Positions 35,932 to 50,484 of a stretch of 54,511 bases of DNA are shown here, piece by piece; the first letter of the stretch is position 1, and each line of letters begins with the position of its first letter. The stretch is from contig JBJTQJ010000105.1 of assembly GCA_046075565.1 (NCBI GenBank), forward strand, positions 1 through 54,511, read 5' to 3'. Source of the DNA: Verrucomicrobiales bacterium (GTDB lineage Bacteria; Verrucomicrobiota; Verrucomicrobiia; Verrucomicrobiales; SLCJ01). A program made the translations under genes and the position numbers. The notes beneath the pieces are model-generated. The model was not told the DNA's origin. It did not search any database and saw only the letters and a list, made by a program, of their open reading frames with translations.

Positions 35932-37506
35932 ATGATCCAACAACAATCCGAACTGCAGTCCGGCCTCTTTGGGGATTCCCCCACTGGCGCGGAAAAATCC
36001 CCGGCCCGGAAACAAAGCGGCACCAGTGGTCCGACCGTGCGGCGTCAGCCGATCGGTGGACTCGGCATGAAAGCCCCATCGTCCGTGGCCAAGAATTTCG
36101 TGCTCGATACCAATGTTCTGCTCCACGATCCGGGTTGTTTGCAGCGTTTCGCAGACAACCACGTTTGTATTCCCGTGGATGTGCTCTCCGAGCTGGATCG
36201 CTTCAAGAATGAACAAAGCGAGCGTGGGGCGAACGCCCGGGCGGTCCATCGCTCGTTGATGGCCCTTTTCGCCGATCATCCGGAAAGTGTGACCCGCGGC
36301 GTGCCTACCACCGGCGGCGGCACCGTGCGGCTCGTCGTTTATGATGCCTCGGGCGCCGGAGCCCGCGCCCAGCAAAGGCTCGCCGAATTCCATCGCGTCC
36401 TGCCCGACCGCGAGCGCGTGGACCACCGGATCCTCGCCTGCGCCTTGCTCATCCAGGAAGCGAATCCATCACCCGTACTTCTGGTCACCAAAGACCTGAA
36501 CATGAATCTCAAGGCCAAGGCCGTGGGACTCGCCTGCCAGGATTACCTCAACGACAAGGTGGACGCGCGTGACGTCAGTTCCTATGAACCCCGCCGCATC
36601 GATGCCACCCCCCAGGAGTTGCAACGACTTGCCAGTTCCGATGAACTCGTTCTCGATGCCTCCCGCATCAAGGGCGTCGTGACCAACCAATACGTCCTTC
36701 TCTGCGCCACTGAAAAACACACGCTTCCGGCGAGGCTCGACCGCAACGGAAAATTGCGCCGCCTTCATCTGCCCGACGGACTCCGCATCCCGAATGGAAT
36801 GCATGTGAAACCACTCAACCTCGGGCAACAGTGTTTCCTCGATGCCATGCTCAATCCTGAGATCAGTTTGGTCACGTGTTACGGTCAAGCGGGCACGGGC
36901 AAAACCCTCATGGCGGTCGCCGCCGGATTGGCCGGGGTTTTCGACCGCCAATACGTAGGACTGACAATCAGCCGGCCCATCGTGGCCATGGGAGAAACCG
37001 TCGGGTTCTTGCCCGGCACCCTTGAGGAAAAAATGCACCCGTGGCTCCAGCCGATCTACGACGCCCTCGAGGTCGTGCTTCGTCCCGAAGGCCGCCCGCC
37101 CGGTGGTCCCTCGCGCAAACGCGGCAAGACCGAAGGAAGCAGCCCGCTGCCTTTGCCCGCCGCCGGTCCGAAAGTTTACGAGCCGCTTCTGCAGCAAGGT
37201 ATTGTGGAAATCGAGGCTCTTTGTTATATCCGCGGGCGTTCCATCCCCAACCGGTTCTTCGTTCTCGACGAGGCGCAGCAGCTCACGCCGCTCGAAGCGA
37301 AGACCATTGTCACCCGCATGTCACGCGGTTCGAAGCTCATCCTCGTCGGCGACCCCGCCCAGATCGACAATCCCTATGTCGATAGTCGAAGCAATGGTCT
37401 CGTTTACACGCGCAAGCGCATGCAAGGCCAGCCTTTCGCCGCCCACGTGAGCCTCAACAAAGGGGAACGGAGCGAACTCGCCGAGGCCGGAGCACAGCTC
37501 ATGTGA
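35932..37506 (+). CDS. PIN-PhoH family protein
   Basis: PIN VLDTNVLLHDP, LVTKD; Walker A GQAGTGKT; IRGRS, LDEAQ, GDPAQID. Confidence 0.92.
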   Translation: MIQQQSELQSGLFGDSPTGAEKSPARKQSGTSGPTVRRQPIGGLGMKAPSSVAKNFVLDTNVLLHDPGCLQRFADNHVCIPVDVLSELDRFKNEQSERGANARAVHRSLMALFADHPESVTRGVPTTGGGTVRLVVYDASGAGARAQQRLAEFHRVLPDRERVDHRILACALLIQEANPSPVLLVTKDLNMNLKAKAVGLACQDYLNDKVDARDVSSYEPRRIDATPQELQRLASSDELVLDASRIKGVVTNQYVLLCATEKHTLPARLDRNGKLRRLHLPDGLRIPNGMHVKPLNLGQQCFLDAMLNPEISLVTCYGQAGTGKTLMAVAAGLAGVFDRQYVGLTISRPIVAMGETVGFLPGTLEEKMHPWLQPIYDALEVVLRPEGRPPGGPSRKRGKTEGSSPLPLPAAGPKVYEPLLQQGIVEIEALCYIRGRSIPNRFFVLDEAQQLTPLEAKTIVTRMSRGSKLILVGDPAQIDNPYVDSRSNGLVYTRKRMQGQPFAAHVSLNKGERSELAEAGAQLM

Positions 37507-37593
37507 GCTGTTAGAGAAACATCATCGATTTCAAGCCGTTAGGATAGCGCCTTGGGTTTTGGCCGAGGACTTTCTCCATCGACGCGTTGTCTC

Positions 37594-38919
37594 TTACCGC
37601 AACCAAAAGACGAGCCCCAGTGTGATCCCGCCGCAGAGGCTGGCCACGAAGGCCCGTCGGCGGCGGTGTCCTTTGGGTTCGGGCCCGAGATCCGGGCGGT
37701 GGTGGCGGGCATCAAACATGACCGGCCAAGCGAAGACAATCGCCACGAGGCAACCTAGAAATGTGGATTTTTCAGGCATCAACAGCATGGCGGGAACAAG
37801 AATGGCCGGCACGGTCTTGCCGAAAGCGAAACCAACCCTGAGATTCGGCAGGCCCAATTTCCGTCTCGTGCTGGCGTGCATCATAAATGATTGCGCGCCC
37901 AGAATCGTGGTATGGGCGGCAAATGCCGTGGATACCGTGAGTTTGCCGTGATGCAGGAGCACCAGCACTCCAAGCACCGGAACAGCGAGCAGAAAGATGG
38001 CGCCGGCGGCATGGCTCAATTCGACGCGGTCTTTGAGTTGGCTGGTCACCAGCACATGCAGGAGAAACAGGGCAATCGGCCCGGCGAGAAAGATGTAGCC
38101 GCCCCAAGCGAGGCAAGAGGCGCCATAGAGCAAAGCGGCGAGCAGCGCGCCGCCATTGAGCGACGACCATTTGCGGCAGAACCAGAGGATGGAAAACAGC
38201 ACGAAGAAAACGAAGGCGGACATGGCCCGCGCGTCCGAATTGCGGGTGTCGAGCTGATCGAGGATGAGGAACACACCCAGCGGCACCATGAGGTTGTCCC
38301 ATCCATCCCCGAGGATGCCTTCGATGGCGGTGGATAGCACGGCCACGCTCAGGGAAATCCAAATCACATCGCCCCGGCTGAGATCCGCGAAGTAGGTCAG
38401 GGGGCCCCAGGAACAGGCGAAGGCCACTGCGAAGAATAGAAACGATCCTTCGATGCTCTTGCGTCCTTTCCAAGCGAGGTAAGCGGTGTTGCCATGACGC
38501 GATCCATAGAGAGCGCTCAAGGCATCGGCGAGGGCCAGCACGAGAACAGGAATGAGAAAGAACTCTTTCCTTCCATCCGCGAGCACGAATACCGCCGCGA
38601 CCGCGAGAGGAAACATCAGTTCACCTGTCGATTGTCTTTCCACCCCATGGAGTGATGCGCCCATGCTCCCGCGCAGCGCGCGCAATCGCCGGATGACCAG
38701 CATCACCGTCAGCGCGAGCAGCCCGAGCAAAACCACCGGCAACGGACCGGAGAAGAGCCATGGAAATGGCAGGCAGAGCAAACCCATGCCGGTATGCACG
38801 GTCTTGCGCGCCAGTTCTGGACTGAGCTTTCCCCTGCGGGCGAGGCCGGAGGAAAAAAACAACAACGCAAACAGCAGCCCGCTGATCGCGACCATGGCCA
38901 TGACATCATGCACAGTCAT
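37594..38919 (-). CDS. Polyprenol/phytol kinase-like (cytidylyltransferase superfamily) membrane protein with C-terminal membrane extension
   Basis: ELARKTVHTGMG, LALADALSALYG, KSIEGS, GWDNLMVP. Confidence 0.8.
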   Translation of the reverse strand: MTVHDVMAMVAISGLLFALLFFSSGLARRGKLSPELARKTVHTGMGLLCLPFPWLFSGPLPVVLLGLLALTVMLVIRRLRALRGSMGASLHGVERQSTGELMFPLAVAAVFVLADGRKEFFLIPVLVLALADALSALYGSRHGNTAYLAWKGRKSIEGSFLFFAVAFACSWGPLTYFADLSRGDVIWISLSVAVLSTAIEGILGDGWDNLMVPLGVFLILDQLDTRNSDARAMSAFVFFVLFSILWFCRKWSSLNGGALLAALLYGASCLAWGGYIFLAGPIALFLLHVLVTSQLKDRVELSHAAGAIFLLAVPVLGVLVLLHHGKLTVSTAFAAHTTILGAQSFMMHASTRRKLGLPNLRVGFAFGKTVPAILVPAMLLMPEKSTFLGCLVAIVFAWPVMFDARHHRPDLGPEPKGHRRRRAFVASLCGGITLGLVFWLR

Positions 38920-40013
38920 CCGCGCACCTCCTCTAAGACGAAACGGCTGTAAAAGAACGCGCGATCCGTTTGGAAAAGGTCTCGGGCTTCTTCATCAAGG
39001 GGAGAAAGAATGTCTGCCAGCGCATCGGGACGGGAGCGCGGGGCGAGCATGTTCCAGTAGGCCAACCGTGCGCCGGGTTTGGCCATGGCCGCGAGACGGG
39101 CCAGCAAATCGCGGGTCGAGTCCTCGCTCATGTATTCAAAGATGTCGCTCAGGTTGAATCCATCGACCGGTGGAAGGCCCTGGACGTCTTCGATCGGGCA
39201 GCTATGGACGGTCAGACGGTTGGCCCGCAAGGCCTCGCGGATGGGTCCGAAAGCTTCAGGTAAAAAGGCCGGTGGCAGATGTCCGCCAAATGACCCGGTT
39301 AAGATCATCCGCAGCCATGGGTTCGACGATGGATCCAATTCGACGAGTGCGTGGCGCGTGCGTCCGAGGATCCGGGCGGCCACGCTGCCCTCGACGTAGC
39401 GGAAAAATTCCGGGTCGCGTCCTAGCAACCCCATGGTGAACCGGGAGAAAAAGACATTAAAAATGGCCCGCCAGCGCCAGTTGTTCCACTTCCCTTCGTA
39501 GAAAGCGGCACGCTCCTGCGGCGGGCGGGGTTGCAGCAGTTCGGCTACTCGTCGGCGGGAATGGGCGAGGGGAAGGACACGCTCGCGGAAAAGCCGGAAG
39601 TAGTTTTCAAACTTGCCCGCGTGGGCCGGACCATCTGCCTCCCAGCAGGCATGACCATCCCAGAACTCGCGAGCCTGTTCGTTGAGCCGTCCGCGCACCC
39701 TTTGGTAAAGCTCCTTTTTCCGTGTCGATGGTTGCAGTCCTAGCAGTTCCAGAAGTTCCTTATGTTCCGATTCCAACCAGGCGGCGATCCGCAGTTCGAT
39801 GCAGGCGATTTGGGTCGGGTTCAACTCGGCGATGGTCACGTGGCCGGCCCCGGCGGCGAGCAGGGCGAGGGCATTGTCGCCAGCCGACCCGATGCTCAGG
39901 TAATGACCACCGGGATGAGGACGCAGCCCGGCGATGAGCAGCGCTGGATCTTCCCAGCAAAGCGCATAACGCACTTGGTCGAATCGGGCGCGGCTTTGGA
40001 TCTCACTGGCCAT
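38916..40013 (-). CDS. DUF3419/BtaA-like SAM-dependent transferase
   Basis: RYALCWED, SIGSAGDN, GKFENYF, FNLSDIFEYM, LAYWN, DRAFFY; alternative start at 40046. Confidence 0.85.
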   Translation of the reverse strand: MASEIQSRARFDQVRYALCWEDPALLIAGLRPHPGGHYLSIGSAGDNALALLAAGAGHVTIAELNPTQIACIELRIAAWLESEHKELLELLGLQPSTRKKELYQRVRGRLNEQAREFWDGHACWEADGPAHAGKFENYFRLFRERVLPLAHSRRRVAELLQPRPPQERAAFYEGKWNNWRWRAIFNVFFSRFTMGLLGRDPEFFRYVEGSVAARILGRTRHALVELDPSSNPWLRMILTGSFGGHLPPAFLPEAFGPIREALRANRLTVHSCPIEDVQGLPPVDGFNLSDIFEYMSEDSTRDLLARLAAMAKPGARLAYWNMLAPRSRPDALADILSPLDEEARDLFQTDRAFFYSRFVLEEVRG

Positions 40014-42510
40014 CGCTTGGTCCTTCCGCACTGGAGTCCGCTTCATTTCGTCTCAGCAGGTTCACGAGGCCGCTCGCACCATCCATTTCCACTTCGTCGC
40101 CATCCCGGAGCCACGAACAGATTCCGGTGAGCCCGACGATACAAGGCAGACCGAGTTCTCGCGATACAATGGCGGAGTGGGAAAGCAGGCTGCCCTTCTC
40201 AACGAGCAGGCCGCTGGCAATGGGAAACAACATCACCCAACCGGGATCGGTCTGGCGTGCGACGAGGATTTCCCCCGGTTGGAGATTGGCCTCCCGCGGA
40301 TCGGTCACCACACGCGCGTGGCCGCGCACCACGCCCGGTGAGGCGCCCGTGCCGGTCATGCTATTTCCTTTCGGTGTAATCTGCTCTGTTAGGACTTTTG
40401 AGGTGGTCATCGCCTTCGTGTTGCGGTGCAGCGGACCACGGGTGGTAAACCGATCCGGAGGAGCGGGTTCGGCGCGGAAACGCTCGAATTCCGCGCGGCG
40501 GACGCGAACGAGGGTGGCGGCGTCTTGGGTCGAGGTCGTGCCATCCAGCAGGCCGAGTGCTTCCTCCGCTTCGAGATAAAAGATGTCGTCGGGTGACTCA
40601 AGTCGTTGATCGGCCGCGAAGCGGCGGCCGAGTTCACGGAAGATGGAGCGCACGTGCCCGAACAGCCGGGTCCGTTCGAAGCGCAAGTTCTCGCGGTCGC
40701 GCACGCGCCGGGCGGCCAATCCGGCCATCCAGCGGAAGATGGTGCGTTTCATGGGATTGCGCACTCGCGCGGCGAGGGCAACAACTGGGTTTGCCGCTGC
40801 TCGAATTCCGGAATCCTCTTTGGTTTTCACCGGAGAGCTCTGGGGATTCGCGGCCCGGGCGAGGACGGCATTCCATAACAAGGTGGCGTCATCACGTAAG
40901 GTCGGGCTCTCCAGTTTCAGTTCCTCCAGGCAGCGGTCGCCGAAACGCTCGAGGTAGTTGTCCCATGCCTCGCGGAAACCGGGCACGCTCGCGATGGCAT
41001 GGCGGGGCGTGCGAGCATCCGGTCCGTGCACAGGGTAGACATTGGCGCTCAGCAGGTCGCCCATGGCGCGGATGGCGATGGCGGGTTCGGCACTGATGAT
41101 GCCGCCCTGATCGACGAGCAGGGTATTTTGTGCGGTCCCGCTTTCATCCCCGGCCCACGACTTGCACCAGGAACGCAGCACGCCATAGGTGATCATCGCG
41201 AAGAAATCATTGACCAGCGGAGCATCCCAGCGGCGAAGGAGTTTGTCCTCGAGCCCCCGGTAGTGCCGGGCCAGATCCTCCGCGCTCAAACCCGCGAGCG
41301 GCTTATCGAGATGCAGGGCATTGTCGAGACGGGCGAGAAATTCCTGTTTCATGCCCGGGAGGGCGAACGCCTGGCGGATGATGCCCGTGATGCCACGCAC
41401 GACGGCGATGCGATCCTGCCATGGAGAAACCGTCGCCTCCGCGATGACCCGCGCGACCAACTCATCCGGCAGCGGTTCTTTCACTCCCATCATTTGTTCC
41501 ATGAACGAACGATTCAGGGTAAATCCCGGAAGGAGGGCGAGCACACGATACCAGGAAAGGAGATTGTAATACACGCGACCATGAACAAGGCCGAGCATCT
41601 TTGGAAAAACCTCCTCGCCCCGCGCGAGCCCTGCCTTCGTGACGCCGAGGATGGCGCAGAATTCCCGATAGACGTGTTCGTAGGCCTTGCGGGCGAAGCT
41701 GAAGGTCAGGGGTGTGGTCACGCCGCCATAACTCTCCACGATATTGCTGTTATCCCAGACACAGGGACTGTCATCGGGGTCGGGTAGGTCGCCGAGGGTG
41801 GTGATGGGGCGCGATTGCAGCAGCCAGAGTTTGCCGGTGTCGTCAATGGCCCACTCAATGTCCTGCGGGATGCCGAAGTGCTTCTCGCAACTCCGGGCGA
41901 GCGCGGCTACTGCGAGAACATCCTTCGTATCGAGACAGGGAGATTTGTCTGCCATGGCGAGGTTGTTGATCTCGGCATCGGTAGTGACTTCCCATGAATC
42001 GGCATTGCTCTCACCCGAGACAAGGGCTTCCCCGAGACCGGGCACGGCGGACACGATGGTGCGGGCACGGCGTCCATGGATCACATCGGCGCTGAAAGCA
42101 ACGCCGGCCGCGCGGGCACGCACCATCGGTTGGATGATGGCCGCGGGGATGGCGGATTCGATGCCGCGTGATTCGGTGTAAGCGCGCATGGCCGGACCCT
42201 CTGCGGAGGCGCGCACGTCCGCGACTGCGGCTTGCAGGTCTTCTTTGCTCACGCTGAGCACGGAGCGGAATTGTCCGGCGAAAGAATGGGCGCTGCCATC
42301 TTCGACGACGGCCGAGGACCGCACGGCGTAGGGACCGGGTCCGAGGGCTTCAGCGCGGATTTCCAATCCTGCGATGGGCCATGGTTCATCCGGCGAGACC
42401 ACGACAAACGGAGGCACATCGAAGGGACCGTCTCCCAAGCGTCCGAGCGCCCGGGCTTTGCCGCCTACGCTGGGATGATGTGCCGCTTGTTGGGAGTCGA
42501 GGATTGGCAT
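40003..42510 (-). CDS. PEP-utilising enzyme with rifampicin phosphotransferase/PigC-like domain order
   Basis: VGGKA, AVRSSAVVEDG..SFAGQF, PQDIEWA, LLQSRPIT; C-terminal TDPGW and GSLLSHSAIVSRELG; start MPILDS at 42510. Confidence 0.88.
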   Translation of the reverse strand: MPILDSQQAAHHPSVGGKARALGRLGDGPFDVPPFVVVSPDEPWPIAGLEIRAEALGPGPYAVRSSAVVEDGSAHSFAGQFRSVLSVSKEDLQAAVADVRASAEGPAMRAYTESRGIESAIPAAIIQPMVRARAAGVAFSADVIHGRRARTIVSAVPGLGEALVSGESNADSWEVTTDAEINNLAMADKSPCLDTKDVLAVAALARSCEKHFGIPQDIEWAIDDTGKLWLLQSRPITTLGDLPDPDDSPCVWDNSNIVESYGGVTTPLTFSFARKAYEHVYREFCAILGVTKAGLARGEEVFPKMLGLVHGRVYYNLLSWYRVLALLPGFTLNRSFMEQMMGVKEPLPDELVARVIAEATVSPWQDRIAVVRGITGIIRQAFALPGMKQEFLARLDNALHLDKPLAGLSAEDLARHYRGLEDKLLRRWDAPLVNDFFAMITYGVLRSWCKSWAGDESGTAQNTLLVDQGGIISAEPAIAIRAMGDLLSANVYPVHGPDARTPRHAIASVPGFREAWDNYLERFGDRCLEELKLESPTLRDDATLLWNAVLARAANPQSSPVKTKEDSGIRAAANPVVALAARVRNPMKRTIFRWMAGLAARRVRDRENLRFERTRLFGHVRSIFRELGRRFAADQRLESPDDIFYLEAEEALGLLDGTTSTQDAATLVRVRRAEFERFRAEPAPPDRFTTRGPLHRNTKAMTTSKVLTEQITPKGNSMTGTGASPGVVRGHARVVTDPREANLQPGEILVARQTDPGWVMLFPIASGLLVEKGSLLSHSAIVSRELGLPCIVGLTGICSWLRDGDEVEMDGASGLVNLLRRNEADSSAEGPSDGQ

Positions 42511-42544
42511 GGCTAAGTGTAGCCCGCCTTTCAGATGACAAATT

Positions 42545-42573
42545 CTGATTTTTTGAAAAAACCGAAAAATCAG
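42545..42573. promoter_or_regulatory. AT-rich inverted repeat inside the five-gene cluster
   Basis: CTGATTTTT (42545-42553)/AAAAATCAG (42565-42573). Confidence 0.35.
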
Positions 42574-42756
42574 CCGCTTCGCGGGATTGTTTTGCAGTAG
42601 GACGGGTCTTTTTCCCGATTCCGGCGTTGCTCGCCCGCCTTCGCTCTTCGAGCTATGGCGGACAAGTCGGTTGCGAATGCCAATTCGCGCCCTCCTCGCG
42701 CCTTGGACTCGAAAAAATTCCTCGTCCATAATTTGCCATCTGCTCGGCGGACCACA

Positions 42757-43668
42757 CTACGGATGAAGCAACCACCAGGCCAAGGGACCGAGGGAAAGAT
42801 AGAGCACGAGTGTCCACAAACCTGCGAGAAGTTCGAGGCGTTTGCCTTGGATGCGGGCATCGAGCATGGGCAGCGAAAGCAGAACCAAGGCAATCCACGC
42901 GACGCCCAGAATCGCCGCGATGGGCAGGGCGAAGCCGATGGAGATGGCGGCCACGGTGGCGAAGATCACCACTGCCAACGAGCATCCCCACCAGGCGAAT
43001 AAGGCGTGCCGTCGGCCCCAGAGCACGCTGTAAGTTTCGACTCCGGTTTCCTCGTCCTCGGGTCGCCGGATCTTGCGCCCGATTTCGATGACGAGTCCGT
43101 TGGCATAACTGGCGGCAAGGAACCAGAGCAGTCCAAGTCCCGGATGCGCGCCCGTTGGCATCCATTGACAGGCGGTCGCGAACAAATCCACCAGCGGCAT
43201 GATAAACATGTGCGTCCACATGTAGGTGATGGGCCGGGCCTTGAGCAAATCGCGGGCGAAGAACTCGACACTCATCAGTGCGAGATAAACCCACGCGACC
43301 ACAAGCACGATGACCAGCAGGGGATGCCGCCACCAGGCGAGGGTGAATTGAATAGCGGCGGCGAACACGAATAACAAACCGAGTTCGCGCAATGTCACCA
43401 GTCCGCGCGGCACGGCGCGATAAGGACGAAATTTGCGATCCTCTTCCACATCCTTGAATTCATCCGCGATACGGAGTTGCAGGAAAAACAGGAAACACAC
43501 GCCGAAGGCGACGGCGAACGCAGACGGGGCGATGCTCCATTGTTTGGTCAACACGGCGCTATAGGCGAGCGCGCTCGCGCTGAAAGCGGCAACGAGCGGA
43601 CCGTGGCCGAAGATCGGAAACCGTTCGGCCTGATAGGTCCACCACTTGCGGAAAAATCCGGGCGTCAT
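42757..43668 (-). CDS. UbiA prenyltransferase-like membrane protein
   Basis: LRIADEFKDVEED, RAVPRGLV, EIGRKI, ETYS; multiple TM helices; ATGA overlap with HMG-CoA reductase stop. Confidence 0.8.
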   Translation of the reverse strand: MTPGFFRKWWTYQAERFPIFGHGPLVAAFSASALAYSAVLTKQWSIAPSAFAVAFGVCFLFFLQLRIADEFKDVEEDRKFRPYRAVPRGLVTLRELGLLFVFAAAIQFTLAWWRHPLLVIVLVVAWVYLALMSVEFFARDLLKARPITYMWTHMFIMPLVDLFATACQWMPTGAHPGLGLLWFLAASYANGLVIEIGRKIRRPEDEETGVETYSVLWGRRHALFAWWGCSLAVVIFATVAAISIGFALPIAAILGVAWIALVLLSLPMLDARIQGKRLELLAGLWTLVLYLSLGPLAWWLLHP

Positions 43669-44945
43669 GTCGAGAGACCGATCGAGCGGGTGCGGGCGAG
43701 TTTGCGGTGGGCGCGGGTGAATTCCCCGGCCGCGAGCGCACCGATGATGGAAAGTTCGCCCGCGAGCAACAATCCGGCGCAGACTTCGGCGAAGGCGCGT
43801 GCATGGCCCTCGCCGGCCAAGCCCATGAGTTCGAGGCAGGCTCGTTGACCGGGAAGTCCGGTGCCTCCACCAACGGTCCCGACCATGATGCCGGGCAGGG
43901 TTACGGCGGCATAAAGTGAACCATCCGTCCTCGCTTCGAAACGAGTGATACCGATGGCGGACTCGGCCACGCAGGCGACATCCTGCCCGGTGGCCAGATA
44001 GAGCGCGGCCAGACCGTTCGCGAAGTGACCTTGCACGCCAATCGTGCCGCTGAGCACGCCTCCGAGCGCGGAGACCCTCCAATACTCCTCGAGCGCACTT
44101 GCGGGGACATGGAGGACCTTTTCAAGCAATGGCCCGGGCAATAACACCTCGGCGGTAACTTTTTTCCCGCGCGTCGAAACGAAGGCGCGCGCGCTCGCCT
44201 TTTTATCGCCCGACATGTTGCCTTCGGTGTAGCTGGCGACTGCCTTGATCGGACAGTGGTTGGTCAGGTAGTCACAGGCCGCCTGGGCGGCCATCGTCAC
44301 CATGTTCTGGCCGGAGGCATCGCCTGTCAGGAATTCCAGGCCCAGATAAATGTGGTTGCCTTCGAGCGTTGGCAGCACGTCGCGGAGTCGGACGTGGCGT
44401 CCTGTTTCTTCGGCGGCCGCTTTGATTTCCTCGAGGTGTTCCAAGGTCCAACAGAGAAAACGGCCGGCCTCCGCAAGGTTGTCGAAAAGAAAAACCGGCA
44501 CCCGCGACAGCGCCTCGCGCACGAGGATGGCCGTGCAACCACCCGCCTCGCCGATGAGCACGGAACCGCGATGGTAACTCGCCACGAGGGCCGCTTCCGT
44601 GGTTGCCAGCGGAATGAAGTAATCACCTCGGGCGTGTAATCCGCGCACGCGCAGCGGCCCCGCGATACCGATGGGCACACGCACGGTGCCGATGCAGTTC
44701 TCGATATTGCGGGCGTAACATTCCAGCGCGTCCACAGCGCCGCTCTCGAGCAGGGCAGGGGAGGGATCGAGTCCCATGGACTTCCAGAGGCGCCGGGCGG
44801 AGGATTCATCGGCCCGGGTGGATGGACGAAGTCCGCGGTAGGTTCCCGCCGTTGGCCCAAGGGACGCCGCTACTTCCTCGGGCGTTCGTCCGGCCAATGC
44901 CGCGCGCGCGTCCTCCCGGAATTGTTCCTGTTTTCCGCCATGCAT
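43665..44945 (-). CDS. Class I hydroxymethylglutaryl-CoA reductase
   Basis: IENCIG, PLATTEAALVAS, GDASGQNM, GNMSGDKK, ATGQD, GTVGGGT, AGELS; start uncertain (44945 or 44993). Confidence 0.88.
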   Translation of the reverse strand: MHGGKQEQFREDARAALAGRTPEEVAASLGPTAGTYRGLRPSTRADESSARRLWKSMGLDPSPALLESGAVDALECYARNIENCIGTVRVPIGIAGPLRVRGLHARGDYFIPLATTEAALVASYHRGSVLIGEAGGCTAILVREALSRVPVFLFDNLAEAGRFLCWTLEHLEEIKAAAEETGRHVRLRDVLPTLEGNHIYLGLEFLTGDASGQNMVTMAAQAACDYLTNHCPIKAVASYTEGNMSGDKKASARAFVSTRGKKVTAEVLLPGPLLEKVLHVPASALEEYWRVSALGGVLSGTIGVQGHFANGLAALYLATGQDVACVAESAIGITRFEARTDGSLYAAVTLPGIMVGTVGGGTGLPGQRACLELMGLAGEGHARAFAEVCAGLLLAGELSIIGALAAGEFTRAHRKLARTRSIGLST

Positions 44946-45039
44946 GAAACCACCGTAAAGTTGCGCGGGAGACTTGCCAACATGGAAACACAAAGCGATT
45001 GGTGTTTCAGATGCAGCATAAACCTTGAAAGGAAAATGG

Positions 45040-45200
45040 AACCACAGATTTCACCCTACGCCACCCTGCGGGCTATGAAGGGCAAACAGATGGGCACGGA
45101 TTTTCAAAGACTTGCAACAAGTTCACCGCTCATCTGCTGGATGAAAAATCCTTCTTTCAGAACATCCTCAGTATCTGCGTTTTCATTATAATCCGTGGTT
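45040..45200. repeat. Non-coding element with terminal inverted repeats (MITE/REP-like)
   Basis: AACCACAGAT (45040-45049) versus ATCCGTGGTT (45191-45200), 9/10 complementary; internal CAGAT/CGGAT units on the left and ATCTG units on the right; lower GC. Confidence 0.5.
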
Positions 45201-45260
45201 TTAGTTTCTGAATTTGGGATAAATGGTCAGTCGGCCTTTCCCTCTCCGAGCCCGCCGGGT

Positions 45261-45563
45261 TCAATGCCTCGCGAGCGCTTGCCCTGCGATGTGCGCAAAA
45301 GGACGCAGCACGGCGAGGGCGAGCAGGCTGGTCAGACCGGCCTGAACAAGTGCGGTGGTGAGATCATCGCCAATCGCGATGGCGGAAAGTCCGGAGATGG
45401 GGCCGATTGCCAAAGCCATGAAGTTGGCCACCCGGGCAAGACATGGTTTTGCCGAGCGGCTGATGGCGGCGGGAGCGGGAGCGGGTGGTTCGGCGATGTC
45501 CCAAGCGGTCGGAGAGTCCGGCAAAAGGTTCATGGCGACGTTGGCGGGTAGGGCTGGGGGCAT
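45261..45563 (-). CDS. Small hypothetical membrane protein downstream of lexA
   Basis: 100-aa ORF with Pro-rich N-terminus and two hydrophobic segments. Confidence 0.5.
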   Translation of the reverse strand: MPPALPANVAMNLLPDSPTAWDIAEPPAPAPAAISRSAKPCLARVANFMALAIGPISGLSAIAIGDDLTTALVQAGLTSLLALAVLRPFAHIAGQALARH

Positions 45564-45780
45564 GGCGGTTGTTTGGGTGAAGATTTTCGGGATGAAAGGT
45601 TCGATTCAGCTGCGCTTGACCGTGGCATCAGGGCACGAAGGGACCTTGCCAGAAGTGGCACTCATTTTTTGCCTCGCAAGAGGCTCCCGGTCATCCCTGC
45701 GGCGTGTCGCCTAGGGATGGTTCCGTGGGCATTCGCCGTTTGTTCTTGCTAGGTCGCCGGTCAGTTATTCGGTCACTGCC

Positions 45781-46413
45781 TCAACCCGCCTTGCGGTTGG
45801 TGTGGGAGCGCAAGAGCATGACGAGCACGCCTTGGATGACGAGTTCCCGGGCCGGGATGAGGTCCGGGTATTTCGGATTTTCCGCTTTCAGGTAGGGACG
45901 GTTCTGACGGACGAGGTAGCGTTTGAGGGTGGTTTCGCCGTCGATGAGGGCGGCCACGATGTCGCCGGTGCGGGGCTGACGGAATTCCATGATCACGGTG
46001 TCGCCATCGCAGATGTGGGCATCGATCATGGAGTCCCCGCGCACACGCAGGGCGAAGGTGCGGGCTCCCCGGGGCAAACCAAGGGTCGAGACATCGATGG
46101 AGATGCAGCTATCCGGCTCTTCTTGGCTGTCGGAGGGCATGCCCGCCGGAATACAGCCGTAGAGCGGCACATCCACGACCTCGTCCCGGTTCAGATCGTT
46201 GGGGAAAACGACAGCGCGGGCCTTGTTGGGCAGGCGTTTGATGGTGCCCTTGCGCTCAAGGGCGCGGAGGTGGCCCATGGCGGCGGTCTGGCTGGCAAAG
46301 CCGAAATGGGCCTGGATTTCCCGCGTGGAAGGAATGATGCCCTCCTCGCGCTGGTAACGACGGAGGTATTCCACGAGGGCCTTCTGGCGGTCGGTGAGCG
46401 GTCGGTTGTTCAT
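45781..46413 (-). CDS. lexA: SOS transcriptional repressor LexA
   Basis: LTDRQ, PSTREI, HLRALERKG; Ala-Gly cleavage site IPAGMP; VRGDSM (Ser) and TTLKR (Lys). Confidence 0.96.
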   Translation of the reverse strand: MNNRPLTDRQKALVEYLRRYQREEGIIPSTREIQAHFGFASQTAAMGHLRALERKGTIKRLPNKARAVVFPNDLNRDEVVDVPLYGCIPAGMPSDSQEEPDSCISIDVSTLGLPRGARTFALRVRGDSMIDAHICDGDTVIMEFRQPRTGDIVAALIDGETTLKRYLVRQNRPYLKAENPKYPDLIPARELVIQGVLVMLLRSHTNRKAG

Positions 46414-46423
46414 AGGCTTTGTA

Positions 46424-46437
46424 TGTTGCTATGAACA
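46424..46437. promoter_or_regulatory. LexA box, one mismatch (TGTTG-CTAT-GAACA)
   Basis: About 10 bp upstream of the lexA start, the same offset as the box at dnaE2. Confidence 0.75.
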
Positions 46438-46523
46438 GTATTCAAGTTTTCATGCGCCGCGCAAGAAAAATTTTCACTTTCGTGGAAATTTGCGCGCTTT
46501 CCTGTCCCGGCTATGGTTGGCGG

Positions 46524-47108
46524 ATGATCCGGGAAATCGTGACATACGGCGATCCAGTGCTGCGGGAGAAATGCCCGCCGGTCGGGGAGATCACCGAGAC
46601 CATCCGGACTCTGGCCGCGGACATGGTCGATACCATGCGGGCGGCTGATGGCGTGGGTCTGGCCGCTCCCCAGATCGGGGTCGCGCTGCAACTCGCGGTG
46701 GTCGATATCTCCCATGCTCCGGAGAGCATCAGCTACTTGAAAGTCGATGGGCAGGACACGGCTCTCGATGCGATCATGCCCCTGATTTTCGTGAACCCGA
46801 AACTCGAATTCGGCGGCACGCGGGAGAGCGAAAGCGAGGGCTGCCTCAGTATCCCAGAAATCCGCGGTAATGTGGACCGTCCGGTGGAGGTGCAAGCGAC
46901 CCTGACCCTGCTGGACGGGCGGACCATCACAGTGGAAACCGACGGACTCCTCGCACGCGCCTTGCAGCATGAGGCCGACCACCTCCACGGCGTCCTTTTC
47001 ACCGACCGGATCAGTTCCGCCGCGAAGGTGAGGATGCGGATCGTCCTCAAAAGATTGCTCGCGGAACAAGGGCCGCGCCGGTATCTGCCGAGACCGGGGA
47101 TGGAGTGA
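46524..47108 (+). CDS. def: Peptide deformylase
   Basis: GVGLAAPQIG, EGCLSIP, QHEADHLHG. Confidence 0.96.
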   Translation: MIREIVTYGDPVLREKCPPVGEITETIRTLAADMVDTMRAADGVGLAAPQIGVALQLAVVDISHAPESISYLKVDGQDTALDAIMPLIFVNPKLEFGGTRESESEGCLSIPEIRGNVDRPVEVQATLTLLDGRTITVETDGLLARALQHEADHLHGVLFTDRISSAAKVRMRIVLKRLLAEQGPRRYLPRPGME

Positions 47109-47199
47109 GTCGGGGCGATGCGGCCATGAGTATGGAGTCCCGCACAGTTCAGATCGAGACAGTCTGACTACAGACTTGAGGTGGGCCGGACCATCGGCA

Positions 47200-47435
47200 G
47201 GCAGGGACCGCTGTCCCAGCGGTCCGGGAGATCGTGGGGAGAACGAAAGTGCGAAGGCGTGGCGGTTCCACCTCCGCGGAGGTTTGAGGACAAACGTCCC
47301 TGCCTTTGTCTGTTGGACGAAGGCGACGATGGGCGATGGCTGCCCGCAAGGGTCCGACCATAGAGAATCGACGCGACCGACCAAATGACGGGCAGGGACC
47401 GCTGTCCCCAGCGGTCCGTGAGATCGTGGGGAGAA
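47200..47435. repeat. REP/REPIN-like cluster
   Basis: 44/45-bp direct repeats at 47200-47243 and 47391-47435 (GGCAGGGACCGCTGTCCC(C)AGCGGTCCG...), with an inverted variant at 47277-47304. Confidence 0.75.
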
Positions 47436-47625
47436 TGTGATCGCCAATGCATGGCGGCTCAAATGCCCGGCACCGGAAGCGGTGCCGCTACAGGGAGGTC
47501 TTGATGGTGTCGCGGAACGCCTTCGCGTTCCCGGGGGTGTGCCTCCGGCAGCCTGCCCAATCCTTGTGTTATGATCGCGTAATGCCTGCAAATTCGCTCG
47601 CCAAACCATCGGTCCTCGTGCCAAA

Positions 47626-50484
47626 GTGCAGGATATGGATCGGCAGATCGATTGGGAGTCCCTGATTCCTCCGGGCGGACGTGTTTTCCTTGGTTCGGGT
47701 GCGGCGACCCCGCAGGCCTTGGTGCGTTCGATGCTCGACGCGGCCCCTGTTCTCAAGGATGTGGAAATCATCCATATCCATACCCTCGGGGAATCTCCAT
47801 GGGTGGACCCGCGCTTCGATGGTATCCTGCGCACGAACACATTTTTCCTCACTCCGACCATCCGCGCGGCTGTCGATGCCGGGCGCGCCGACTACACGCC
47901 TTGTTCTCTCTCGGAAGTCGCCGGGTTGTTCGCGCCGGGATTGCTGCCGATCGACACGGCTTTGGTAATGACAAGTCCTCCCGATGAGGAGGGATTTGTC
48001 AGTCTCGGAGTGGCGGTCGATGTGACCATCGCGGCGGTGCGGCAGGCGAGAAAAGTGGTGGCACAGATCAATCCGCTTTTGCCGCGCACGGACGGGGAGG
48101 CGCGTTGGCCGATGGGAAAAATCGACGCATTCATCGAGCAAAGCCAGGAACTTCCGGAGTTGCCGCCGCCGGAACCCGATCCCATCCGCAGCCGCATCGC
48201 GGCCTATGTGGCGGAATGTATCGAGGATGGCAGCACACTGCAGATCGGCCTCGGTGTCACGGCCCGTTCGGTTTCCGCCGCTTTGCGAGGGCATCGTCAT
48301 CTCGGCATCCATACCGGCATGCTGACCGACGGATTGATCGATCTCATCCGCGCCGGGGTGGTGGATAACAGCCGCAAGGGGTTGCACAACGGTGTGAGTG
48401 TTTGCAGTCACGTGCTCGGGACGCGTCATGTCTACGACTTTGTCGATGGCAACTCCCTCGTCGAATTCCATGGCAGTGCCTACGTGAACCATCCCGCCAC
48501 GGTGGCCCGACTACACCGTATGGTCGCCATCAACGGGGCGCGGCAAATGGATCTAACAGGCCAGGTGGTTCGTGATTCGCGTGGACATCATTTCCATGGC
48601 GGGGTGGGGGCTTCGCTCGATTTCGCGCGGGGCGCGGCCATGGCCCCGCACGGCCGGCCGATCATCGTCCTGCCCTCGACCAGCGCCGATGGCAAAAAAT
48701 CCCGTATCGTCGCCAACCTCTCACCCGGCACCGGCATCGCGACCGGGCGCACCGACGTGCACACCGTGGTGACGGAGCACGGCATCGCACGATTGCACGG
48801 GCGCAGCATCCGTGAACGGGTGATGGAACTCATCCAGATTGCCCATCCCGATTTCCGGGAAGATCTGCTCCGCGAGGCCCGCCACTGGGGCTGGGTGCCG
48901 AAACTGTTTTCCATGCCGCCCTCGTCGTTGCGCGACGGCACCGGACAAGGAGGCATTGAATCGAGAAAGGTCCGTCTGTTAGGCAAATCCTTCGGCCTGC
49001 GCCCGCTCCATCCTTCCGACATGCGGCGGCTCCAGGAATTCTTCTACTCCCATGATCCGGAGACGGTGCGTCTGCGTTACGGCTACAGTCGCGACAGCAT
49101 GCCCGCCGAGAGCGCCTACAAACTCGTGGCCGTCGATCAAAACCGCGATCTCGCCCTCACCATCACCGAGGAATTGGCCGAAGGCGAGGTGCTGCGCGCC
49201 ATCGGACGGTATTACCTCGACGATGATGGAAAATCCGCCGAAGTCGCTTTTGTCGTGCACGAGGAATTCCGCAGGCACGGCATGGGTTCGGTGCTACTGG
49301 AGGAATTGGCCCGCATTGCACGGGCACGCGGCATCAAATCATTCTGGGCGAGCGTGCTCGTCCGCAACCGGACCATGGCCGGTCTTTTCCTCAAACATGG
49401 CGCGGTCGTCTCTGCAGGTGATGATGTTTCGTCAAAACTCCACACCCTTGATGTCGCGGAAATCCTCACGCGTGCGGATGCCCGCGCCGCCGGATCAAAA
49501 GTTTCACGTGCCGACTCCGCGGAAGGACCGGCTGTGGCCGTGGGTGTTGTTTTTGACGGCGTTTTCGAAAAACACGACACCGGGCCCGGTCATCCCGAAT
49601 CAGCGCAACGATACCGCGCCGTTTGGGAAACCCTGCGGCGCATGAATGATGAGGAAAGCGTCATTGCCCTGCCGGTGAAAGAGGCCACGATCGAGGATCT
49701 CCAGCTTTGCCACGAGCCGCATTACATCGACATCGTGCGTTTGGATGTAGAAAGCCTCGCCGATCAACTCCGCACCGGCGACGTGGTGATCAGCGAGGAT
49801 TCATGGCACATCGGGCGACTCGCGGCAGGAAGTTGCATCGCGGCCACTGATGCCGTGATCGACGGGCGTGTGCGCCGCGCCTTCTGCGCAGTGCGTCCGC
49901 CGGGACACCACGCCAGTCCCGCGCGGGGCATGGGATTCTGTCTCTTCAACAATGTGGCCATCGCGGCCCGTCATGCCCTGCGTCGCCGTGGCCTGAAGCG
50001 CGCTCTCATCTTCGACTGGGACGTGCATCACGGCAACGGCACCCAGGATGTCCTCGAAGCCGATCCGGATGTCTATTTCTTCTCCTCCCACCAGTGGCCG
50101 CTGTATCCCGGCACCGGTGCGGCGAGCGAACGCGGGACCGGTCCCGGAATCGGCACCACCTTCAATCTCCCGCTCAAGGAAGGCACGGGAGTGGAAGCGG
50201 TGTTTGCGGTGATGGATGGTCCGCTCGCCGCCGCCATGGAGGAATTCCGCCCCGAGATCGTTTTTATCTCCGCCGGTTTCGACGCCCGGGTCGATGATCC
50301 GCTGGGTGGACTGAATTGGACCGATGATGATTTCGCAGCCCTCACGGATCGGTTGGTCGCATTGGCGGAGAAATATGCCTCCGGCCGTGTGGTCAGTGTG
50401 CTTGAAGGCGGTTACAACCCTTCCGGTCTCGCCAGTGCCGTGGAAACCCACGTGCGACGGCTCATGGTTTCCTCCTCCCTTTGA
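47626..50484 (+). CDS. Three-domain fusion: acetyl-CoA hydrolase/transferase-like + GNAT + HDAC-family deacetylase
   Basis: N: GRADYTP, SLGVAVD, LQIGLG, DLTGQV, DFARGA, VVTEHGIA; middle: LRPLHPSD, AEVAFVV..FRRHGMG; C: HPESAQRY, RPPGHHA, DWDVHHGNGTQ, SAGFDA, LEGGY. Confidence 0.9.
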   Translation: MQDMDRQIDWESLIPPGGRVFLGSGAATPQALVRSMLDAAPVLKDVEIIHIHTLGESPWVDPRFDGILRTNTFFLTPTIRAAVDAGRADYTPCSLSEVAGLFAPGLLPIDTALVMTSPPDEEGFVSLGVAVDVTIAAVRQARKVVAQINPLLPRTDGEARWPMGKIDAFIEQSQELPELPPPEPDPIRSRIAAYVAECIEDGSTLQIGLGVTARSVSAALRGHRHLGIHTGMLTDGLIDLIRAGVVDNSRKGLHNGVSVCSHVLGTRHVYDFVDGNSLVEFHGSAYVNHPATVARLHRMVAINGARQMDLTGQVVRDSRGHHFHGGVGASLDFARGAAMAPHGRPIIVLPSTSADGKKSRIVANLSPGTGIATGRTDVHTVVTEHGIARLHGRSIRERVMELIQIAHPDFREDLLREARHWGWVPKLFSMPPSSLRDGTGQGGIESRKVRLLGKSFGLRPLHPSDMRRLQEFFYSHDPETVRLRYGYSRDSMPAESAYKLVAVDQNRDLALTITEELAEGEVLRAIGRYYLDDDGKSAEVAFVVHEEFRRHGMGSVLLEELARIARARGIKSFWASVLVRNRTMAGLFLKHGAVVSAGDDVSSKLHTLDVAEILTRADARAAGSKVSRADSAEGPAVAVGVVFDGVFEKHDTGPGHPESAQRYRAVWETLRRMNDEESVIALPVKEATIEDLQLCHEPHYIDIVRLDVESLADQLRTGDVVISEDSWHIGRLAAGSCIAATDAVIDGRVRRAFCAVRPPGHHASPARGMGFCLFNNVAIAARHALRRRGLKRALIFDWDVHHGNGTQDVLEADPDVYFFSSHQWPLYPGTGAASERGTGPGIGTTFNLPLKEGTGVEAVFAVMDGPLAAAMEEFRPEIVFISAGFDARVDDPLGGLNWTDDDFAALTDRLVALAEKYASGRVVSVLEGGYNPSGLASAVETHVRRLMVSSSL

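Follow-up and report, generated by a model that had tools for sequence, protein, structure and literature searches.

A conserved seven-gene set with a divergent HMG-CoA reductase homologue in Verrucomicrobiales and other bacteria, a candidate pathway to a lipid-like product

Introduction

Salvage of phytol in plants and cyanobacteria relies on the phytol kinase VTE5 and the phytyl-phosphate kinase VTE6, the latter from the DUF92 family, which together feed UbiA-type phytyltransferases. The UbiA superfamily is marked by two Asp-rich motifs, NDxxDxxxD and DxxxD, while phytol and dolichol kinases belong to the CdsA superfamily, the CTP-dependent prenol kinases being collected in the Pfam family PF01148 (CTP_transf_1). 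The only chemistry known to us for a third family, DUF3419, is the S-adenosylmethionine (SAM)-dependent transfer of a 3-amino-3-carboxypropyl group to a lipid hydroxyl. Here we describe a locus that likewise brings a UbiA-family transferase into one putative pathway with domains resembling prenol kinases and DUF92 proteins, and further with a DUF3419 protein, a homologue of HMG-CoA reductase (HMGR; HMG, 3-hydroxy-3-methylglutaryl) and a phosphoenolpyruvate (PEP)-utilising dikinase. The locus lies on contig JBJTQJ010000105.1 (assembly GCA_046075565.1) of a Verrucomicrobiales bacterium, of which positions 1 to 54,511, i.e. the whole stretch analysed, are called the window below.

The functional unit consists of seven genes, since a tandem GNAT and an AMP-forming ligase join the five genes found side by side in the window. 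We consider it moderately probable that these seven genes form a conserved and widespread pathway to a membrane-associated, lipid-like product outside isoprenoid precursor supply, and this product would be prenylated, SAM-modified and N-acylated. No description of the gene combination was found in full-text searches, subscription-only papers being outside their scope, and none of the papers mentioning DUF3419 in a full-text search deals with this cluster; the UbiA and HMGR neighbourhoods mentioned in the Lipocone preprint differ in composition from the one described here. The gene set is conserved and, in the literature searched, uncharacterised, i.e. it is made of known enzyme superfamilies whose combination, like the reductase pocket, is without a described counterpart.

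Gene organization and conservation of the locus

The window holds a minus-strand run of five consecutive open reading frames (ORFs), read from 44945 down to 37594:

43665..44945, minus strand: class-I HMGR homologue, 426 aa from the ATG at 44945, PF00368
42757..43668, minus strand: divergent UbiA-superfamily integral membrane transferase, 303 aa, PF01040
40003..42729, minus strand: PEP-utilising 'swivelling-His' enzyme of the rifampicin phosphotransferase (RPH)/PigC type, here called dikinase, 908 aa as the longest ORF
38916..40013, minus strand: DUF3419/BtaA-like SAM-dependent transferase, 365 aa, PF11899
37594..38919, minus strand: two-domain membrane protein with a prenol-kinase-like/CdsA-like N-terminal half and a degenerate DUF92 C-terminal half, 441 aa

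All five ORFs are present as given in a preliminary description of the locus, and the three overlaps that it reported can be read directly in the sequence. The start of the UbiA gene overlaps the stop of the reductase gene (ACATGA at 43665-43668, with ATGA as the overlap), the first 11 nt of the DUF3419 gene coincide with the end of the dikinase gene (ATGGCCAGTGA at 40003-40013), and a second ATGA overlap joins the DUF3419 gene to that of the prenol-kinase-like protein (GGATGA at 38916-38919). Open sequence extends the reductase ORF upstream to a TTG at 44993. For the DUF3419 gene, the ATG at 40013 agrees with the N-terminus of the family. In the dikinase ORF, conservation among 66 family members begins at residue 89 and is lacking in the 88 residues before it, and its true start may therefore lie downstream of 42729, e.g. 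at an ATG near 42510.

The distribution of the locus was determined with a 13-row alignment of relatives of the fifth, prenol-kinase-like protein, which was run against one genome per species (185,579 species) and gave 337 confirmed relatives. Neighbourhoods were compared in the best 80 of the 337 loci, each with up to 10 kb of flank. As found by tblastn with the window proteins, the five genes occur in the order of the window in nearly all loci of sufficient length, and all-against-all clustering of the flanking ORFs returned two further same-strand families, in 69 and 63 loci, i.e. the ligase and the GNAT. The complete seven-gene set stands on one strand in 55 of the 80 loci, either in the order HMGR, UbiA, dikinase, DUF3419, prenol-kinase-like protein, GNAT, ligase (29 loci) or with the GNAT-ligase pair in first place (26 loci); among the remaining 25 loci, most are truncated at a contig end. 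The grouping proposed in the preliminary description therefore holds, but its five genes are not the full unit: the GNAT and ligase had been missed, as had the degenerate DUF92-like half of the fifth protein and the identity of only 24 % between its DUF3419 protein and a homologue linked to btaAB-type genes. Conserved minus-strand and Arg/Pro-rich flank 'families' were rejected as shadow ORFs lying over the GNAT and ligase genes.

According to the record titles, the 80 loci come from about a dozen phylum-level groups, including Verrucomicrobiota, Planctomycetota, Gemmatimonadota, Acidobacteriota, Gammaproteobacteria (with Burkholderiales), Desulfobulbales, Bacteroidota/Rhodothermales, Armatimonadota, Eremiobacterota, Sumerlaeota, a metagenome-assembled genome of Mycobacteriaceae and a cyanobacterium. 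The GNAT was found in 22 of 401 genomes sampled evenly from the phylum of the window. Eighteen of the 21 GNAT contexts outside the genome of the window were fetched, and 12 of the 18 contain all seven genes, five of them in the window order and seven in a second layout, i.e. HMGR, DUF3419, prenol-kinase-like protein, GNAT, ligase, UbiA, dikinase, or the same genes split into two divergent units. There are at least three layouts in all, among which the pairs UbiA-dikinase, DUF3419-kinase and GNAT-ligase are never separated. Since these pairs persist while protein identities between layouts drop to about 30 %, the linkage appears to have been under long-standing selection.

Co-inheritance of the set is also seen within the order. 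Among 41 genomes, the kinase-like protein was found in nine, the HMGR in eight, the cluster-type DUF3419 in ten and the GNAT, with strong scores, in ten, all four being found together in seven genomes, and only one genome has the HMGR without the other cluster genes. Taken with the 55 of 80 loci and the 12 of 18 contexts, these seven genomes bear out the conservation of the set. A chance juxtaposition of five unrelated genes, for which we found no supporting evidence, is barely conceivable considering the stop/start overlaps at three junctions and the recurrence of the set in several layouts.

The GNAT-ligase pair of the window's own genome lies on another contig (C117). Upstream of it (L086:1406-3630) are a gene for a membrane domain of the lysyl-phosphatidylglycerol-synthase, flippase-like type and one resembling FAD-dependent halogenases and geranylgeranyl reductases, both separated from the pair by a GFO/IDH/MocA oxidoreductase gene on the other strand; neither was seen as a conserved neighbour in the flanks of the 80 loci.

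The HMG-CoA reductase homologue

The first protein of the block matches PF00368 (HMG-CoA_red) with an E value of 1.2e-107 and 360.6 bits (cut-off 27). Its best solved relative is 6hr7 from Methanothermococcus thermolithotrophicus (E 1.1e-81), followed by archaeal, plant and human class-I enzymes down to an E value of 4.5e-54 for human 1dq8, and fold and length are common to all of them. Grouped at 90 % identity, the family falls into at least 120 clusters, which are 56-92 % identical to the window protein; the nearest named relatives are from Verrucomicrobiota, the distribution of the gene is patchy, and all named members among the matches listed are annotated as HMG-CoA reductase. The score for the NCBIfam equivalog TIGR00533 (325.5 bits) falls under the cut-off of 441.8.

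A family alignment of 59 sequences was made from the window protein and 58 of 61 locus matches, three having been dropped for covering less than 80 % of its length. Human numbering was fixed by alignment with 1dq8 (offset 421), by which the spacing of Glu559, Lys691 and Ser684 is reproduced. The equivalents of human Glu559, Arg590, Asp690, Lys691, Lys692 and Asp767 are invariant in all 59 sequences, while those of His866 (the conserved AH of FxxAHxxLAR) and Asn755 sit in motifs kept in at least 95 % of them. The cluster reductases thus share the catalytic Glu, Lys, Asp and His with the class-I enzymes, as well as the motifs ENxIG, DKK, GQD and GTVGGGT. They differ in that the Ser684 position is Glu in every sequence and that 32 sequences have Met, 25 Val and 2 Leu, but none Lys, in the place of Lys735, the two residues being Glu241 and Val291 in the window protein; moreover, Gly560 is replaced by Ala and the second Met of DAMGMN by Gln in all 59. 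Ser and Lys occupy positions 684 and 735 in all four solved class-I enzymes; the canonical residues are those of these four structures, and no canonical HMGR is among the 120 best homologue matches. As described in one study, Lys735 forms a salt bridge to the HMG carboxylate, and Ser684 is among the residues holding it (PMC9500038).

Judging from these positions, the catalytic apparatus of the reductase looks intact and its acyl pocket re-tooled. The protein is probably an active CoA-thioester reductase whose acyl group lacks the HMG carboxylate and bears a neutral or hydrophobic group in its place, so that it would turn an acyl-CoA into an alcohol, in an acyl pocket that has changed. The genomic setting also sets it apart from the described class-I enzymes: it is embedded in a seven-gene operon, and it is the single HMGR of a genome (3.9 Mb, rated 100 % complete) in which no other mevalonate-pathway gene scores over its family cut-off, HMG-CoA synthase, HMG-CoA lyase, mevalonate kinase and diphosphomevalonate decarboxylase all having been looked for. 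Neither a source of HMG-CoA nor a use of mevalonate is therefore apparent. IspH, the only gene of the methylerythritol phosphate (MEP) pathway that was looked at, scores over the family cut-off. IspH (LytB) is present in two copies, at C82:34961-35980 and C21:15025-15846. Together, the missing mevalonate pathway and the replaced contacts to the HMG carboxylate lend support to a substrate other than HMG-CoA.

If the enzyme were nevertheless a true HMG-CoA reductase, mevalonate could serve as a building block, e.g. of a mevalonyl amide formed through the ligase and the GNAT in the manner of fungal siderophores, or enter a short unconventional route to a prenyl phosphate that feeds the UbiA protein. 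The strength of the matches to PF00368 and 6hr7, the invariant catalytic residues, the uniform annotation of the named homologues among the matches listed, and the presence of two kinase-type enzymes and a prenyltransferase in the same operon all agree with it. Even so, we regard a true HMG-CoA reductase as rather unlikely: no HMG-CoA source was found in the genome rated 100 % complete, mevalonate kinase and diphosphomevalonate decarboxylase were not found over their cut-offs while IspH is present, positions 684 and 735 deviate throughout the 59 sequences, the TIGR00533 score is too low and versions of the cluster without HMGR exist.

The membrane enzymes and the dikinase

The UbiA-type protein is a divergent member of its superfamily and remote from all solved members. 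It scores 45.4 bits with PF01040 (cut-off 34.2) and 80 bits with NF010118 (cut-off 443), and the only solved structure related to it by sequence is the digeranylgeranylglyceryl phosphate (DGGGP) synthase 6m31, at an E value of 0.67. Across 65 sequences, the family motifs are ADEFKDxxeD, with the spacing D-x3-D-x3-D, and NGxviEiGRKxRxPxxEexGVxtY, in which the second region is Glu-rich (ExGRKxRxPxxEexGVxtY).

No Pfam family was found for the fifth protein at E values up to 10, except for a weak STT3 match, and no NCBIfam family was found either; close relatives carry the JGI name 'phytol kinase'. Its AlphaFold2 (AF2) model has a mean pLDDT of 88.7. For residues 47-225, the best match is the cytidine diphosphate-diacylglycerol synthetase TmCdsA (4q2e), which leads both searches with a Foldseek probability of 0.93 and aligns over 167 residues with a VIA Z of 8.6, middling for a helical protein, and a root-mean-square deviation of 6.2. 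According to this model, the fifth protein has a CdsA/prenol-kinase-like fold. An hhalign comparison with distant kinase-DUF92 fusion proteins gave a probability of 99.9 over residues 5-347, and this alignment extends into the DUF92 part as far as its first third, but motifs such as ADTWATEIG are not kept. The Atlas search also gave DUF92 leads (0.83 and 0.80), while PF01940 (DUF92) itself gave no Pfam match; no convincing solved fold was found for the C-terminal half, the structural matches below CdsA being designed helical repeats. In contrast to phytol salvage by VTE5 and VTE6, the fifth protein thus lacks a Pfam match to either kinase family and has lost the DUF92 motifs, and a His-swivel dikinase adjoins the UbiA gene. 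This dikinase may take over the second phosphorylation.

The dikinase comprises a PPDK_N domain (E 3.8e-41) and a PEP-utilisers mobile domain (E 2.7e-22), and its closest solved structure is the RPH of Listeria (5fbs, E 9.4e-48). As in RPH and PigC/RedH/TamQ, a swivelling His domain is combined with an ATP-grasp and a substrate domain. The phospho-His position is kept in the motif GSLLSHSAIV, whose His is conserved in 66 sequences and corresponds in the alignment to that of Listeria RPH. The dikinase differs from these enzymes in scoring far under every equivalog cut-off (RedH 272 of 1350, Rph 236 of 999, PigC 227 of 1300 bits), in a middle domain with motifs of its own and in having a UbiA-type membrane enzyme as its constant partner. 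The best NCBIfam models are uncharacterised 'PEP synthase' families, led by NF004881 with 626 bits, which is also under the cut-off. For three of the seven cluster proteins there is no NCBIfam model.

The DUF3419 protein, the tandem GNAT and the ligase

The DUF3419 protein matches PF11899 with an E value of 2.3e-55 and 188.8 bits, and no solved structure was matched by sequence. Two types of DUF3419 protein can be distinguished in the genomes of the order, i.e. a cluster type scoring 188-242 bits with PF11899 and a btaAB type scoring 340-363 bits. The window protein is 24 % identical (E 1e-14) to the btaAB-type homologue of a related genome (G018), the N-terminal motifs YAxCWED and SAGxNAL being common to both. 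By these comparisons, the cluster proteins form a subfamily of their own. Genuine betaine-lipid genes probably exist in the same order as well: in G018 (L143:3996-5809), a gene for a 215-aa SAM methyltransferase has its start within the DUF3419 gene (362.8 bits), in the manner of a btaAB pair.

The DUF3419 domain and the two shared motifs could be taken to mean that the cluster protein acts as BtaA on diacylglycerol, in a variant of the betaine lipid of the diacylglyceryltrimethylhomoserine (DGTS) type to which the other genes are accessory. We hold this to be very unlikely, given the low identity and the lower PF11899 scores, and considering that no BtaB-type methyltransferase gene is present in the window cluster or belongs to the conserved flank families of the 80 loci, an absence already pointed out for the window. 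The constant neighbours of the cluster-type gene are instead the prenol-kinase-like protein and the GNAT, and in one database protein of 719 aa (P0171) a cluster-type DUF3419 part, 49 % identical to the window protein, is naturally fused to a GNAT part by a plausible linker of about 60 residues. An apparent kinase-GNAT fusion (P0152) was rejected, because the Arg/Pro-rich stretch between its parts looks like a frameshifted read.

The GNAT protein (about 313 aa) has no Pfam match, while its Atlas neighbours carry PF00583. Its AF2 model (pLDDT 94.4) contains two GNAT folds in one chain, and the best Foldseek matches are tandem GNATs that acetylate amines, i.e. 7q3a (3e-11), 5kf1 (1.4e-10) and 1ozp (2.4e-9); the best structural matches are MAB_4324, glucosamine N-acetyltransferase and mycothiol synthase, in agreement with the Atlas search. 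A profile of the family retrieved 1,444 representatives (clusters at 50 % identity, E up to 1e-30) among 1.84 billion. Since DUF3419 and GNAT are adjacent in the variant cluster of genome G029 (see below) and fused in P0171, the GNAT would N-acylate the amine introduced by the DUF3419 protein, and this coupling in turn favours aminocarboxypropyl transfer over methyl transfer. The AMP-binding ligase (about 513 aa, PF00501) scores best with NF006754 (321 bits), followed by olefin beta-lactone synthetase (183 bits).

Variant clusters

The reductase is not present in all versions of the cluster: clusters without HMGR were found in Burkholderiales and Blastocatellia loci and in three of the phylum contexts. 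A cytochrome P450 gene lies in or beside the cluster in five of the 80 loci and in one further locus (L138), these loci including HMGR-less ones:

L066:12327-13652, P450 gene, in the cluster (Blastocatellia)
L063:6628-7950, P450 gene, in the cluster (Blastocatellia)
L055:3170-4486, P450 gene, in the cluster (Burkholderiales)
L035, P450 gene
L045, P450 gene
L138:12094-13401, P450 gene

The P450 proteins are most like the oxygenases of albaflavenone (300 bits) and pentalenene (256 bits), i.e. of the sesquiterpene type. Considering that two of the core enzymes are integral membrane proteins and that some loci contain this terpene-type P450, the substrate would be a lipid or a terpenoid.

The variant of G029 (contig C183; L102:12011-15812 and L100:1-10945) has neither HMGR nor the kinase and reads UbiA, dikinase, PigE/TamH-like aminotransferase-reductase fusion, second dikinase, SnoaL/SgcJ-like gene, DUF3419, GNAT, ligase. 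The fusion protein (890 aa) joins a class-III aminotransferase to an NAD-binding reductase domain, and its best model is PigE, with 375 bits. TamH is presented in two papers as an aminotransferase-thioester-reductase didomain that turns fatty acids into amines together with TamA, and PigE is ascribed thioester reduction besides its transaminase role there (PMC9594044, PMC8341465). An ANL ligase and a thioester reductase are thus combined in one cluster in both cases, with the difference that the main form of our cluster has a four-electron reductase of the HMGR fold and a lipid kinase, and no bipyrrole genes. Two alternative thioester reductases would thus occur in one cluster family. Chiefly because the lipid kinase is present where an alcohol would be formed and absent where an amine would be, we place ligase, reductase and kinase in one putative branch of the pathway, and the combination of HMGR-fold reductase and lipid kinase suggests that the main form yields an alcohol or a phosphate rather than an amine.

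These variants also bear on the nature of the product, which might be a diffusible specialised metabolite, i.e. a prenylated or terpenoid amide or alkaloid made by a logic like that of prodiginines and tambjamines, with activation of an acid, reduction of its thioester and a PigC-type ATP-dependent condensation. Such a product would fit the dikinase matches to the RedH and PigC models (272 and 227 bits), the accessory genes of G029, the occasional P450 and the patchy spread of the set (nine of 41 genomes of the order, 22 of 401 of the phylum). Set against this are a core that is unusually constant, with seven families over about 12 phyla and tailoring genes in few loci, the polytopic membrane nature of two core enzymes from lipid-handling families, and the flanks of the 80 loci, in which no gene for transport, regulation or resistance recurs as a conserved neighbour. 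A diffusible metabolite is accordingly possible in our view, if unlikely.

Proposed pathway

We therefore favour a dedicated route to a membrane-associated, lipid-like product, whose steps, their order and their assignment are suggested by the enzyme families, the constant gene pairs and the variant clusters. The ligase would provide an acyl-CoA within the pathway (step 1), and the HMGR-fold enzyme would reduce this CoA thioester with four electrons to a primary alcohol, its substrate bearing a neutral or hydrophobic group where HMG bears the carboxylate (step 2). The lipid alcohol would then be phosphorylated by the membrane kinase, probably with CTP (step 3), after which the dikinase may add or activate a phosphate through its phospho-His, and the adjacent UbiA protein may form a prenyl or other diphosphate-dependent linkage in the membrane (step 4). 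Finally, the DUF3419 protein would move the 3-amino-3-carboxypropyl group of SAM onto a hydroxyl (step 5), and the resulting amine would be N-acylated by the tandem GNAT (step 6). A pathway that reduces an acyl-CoA and phosphorylates, prenylates and SAM-modifies the product had been suggested before, and it gains support from the conservation of the set, the missing mevalonate pathway and the replaced contacts to the HMG carboxylate.

Several points weigh against this route. All mechanistic steps for the seven proteins are read from family membership, and the gene starts in the fetched loci follow our own ORF rule instead of the annotation. As for the reductase, its identity to true class-I HMGRs in the printed alignments amounts to 40-50 %, and most HMG contacts are retained (Arg590, Asp690, Lys691, Lys692, Asn755), so that HMG-CoA may remain a candidate substrate. 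The second acidic motif of the UbiA protein is atypical in being Glu-rich, the kinase half of the fifth protein could be a cytidylyltransferase, CdsA being its best structural match, and the DUF3419 protein could be a methyltransferase instead. The ligase has the GNAT and not the reductase as its constant partner, and HMGR-less clusters (L013, L066, L125-L127) retain it; it may thus serve the GNAT only. Lastly, the patchy distribution and the P450, SnoaL and PigE-like accessories would suit a diffusible secondary metabolite equally well.

The same enzymes can be arranged in another order, and one could speculate that they make a new class of bacterial membrane lipid with a SAM-derived amino-alcohol backbone. 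The BtaA-like enzyme would first set a homoserine unit on a lipid alcohol through an ether, followed by N-acylation by the tandem GNAT and conversion of the carboxyl group to a CoA thioester by the ligase; the HMGR-fold enzyme, its pocket now hydrophobic, would reduce this thioester to a 'homoserinol' alcohol, which would be phosphorylated and prenylated at the membrane. Improbable as we consider it, this arrangement, if true, would mean the first non-mevalonate function of the HMG-CoA reductase fold and a lipid backbone independent of glycerol and sphingoid bases, spread by gene transfer over a dozen phyla.

Flanking genes and sequence elements

The flanks of the five-gene block in the window are unrelated to it. 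Upstream, beyond a spacer of 835 nt, lies the LexA gene (45781-46413, minus strand), followed by an unassigned ORF of 483 aa; downstream is a PIN/PhoH gene on the opposite strand. A further feature lies in the spacer:

45185..45212, minus strand: promoter-like site TTCAGA-16-TATAAT, about 240 nt upstream of the reductase ATG

With 10 of 12 consensus positions matched, this site is no more than a weak lead, as a scan of the region gave two sites against 1.5 expected by chance. Promoter counts were near chance and terminator-like matches fell inside genes in the scans of the region, and Rfam (E up to 1) returned only a chance-level microRNA match over 37000-46500, with no riboswitch. The spacer also contains an ORF of 100 aa (45261-45563, minus strand), which does not belong to any of the families found conserved around the 80 loci.

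The 483-aa ORF (46410-47861, minus strand) overlaps the start of the LexA gene by 4 nt and has neither a Pfam nor an NCBIfam family; many partial copies of a short part of it (about residues 113-250) are scattered over other places of the genome. Further upstream, an ORF of 952 aa (47626-50484, plus strand) combines N- and C-terminal acetyl-CoA hydrolase/transferase domains with a GNAT domain and a histone-deacetylase-type domain, an unusual combination that would bring together acetyl-CoA handling, acetylation and deacetylation in one chain.

Implications

The seven-gene set is frequent, with 337 relatives of the kinase across the 185,579 species and the 1,444 representatives of the GNAT, and its product would be a lipid or metabolite made by bacteria from the sea, soil, sponges and hypersaline sites. 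Cultured carriers are known, i.e. Rubritalea profundi (L062) and Haloferula strains, which makes the question directly testable. The presence of an HMGR homologue is routinely taken to indicate the mevalonate pathway. If the family described here acts on another acyl-CoA, pathway reconstructions would be wrong at this point for many Verrucomicrobiota, Planctomycetota, Gemmatimonadota and others, and a new activity of a very well-studied fold would become testable.

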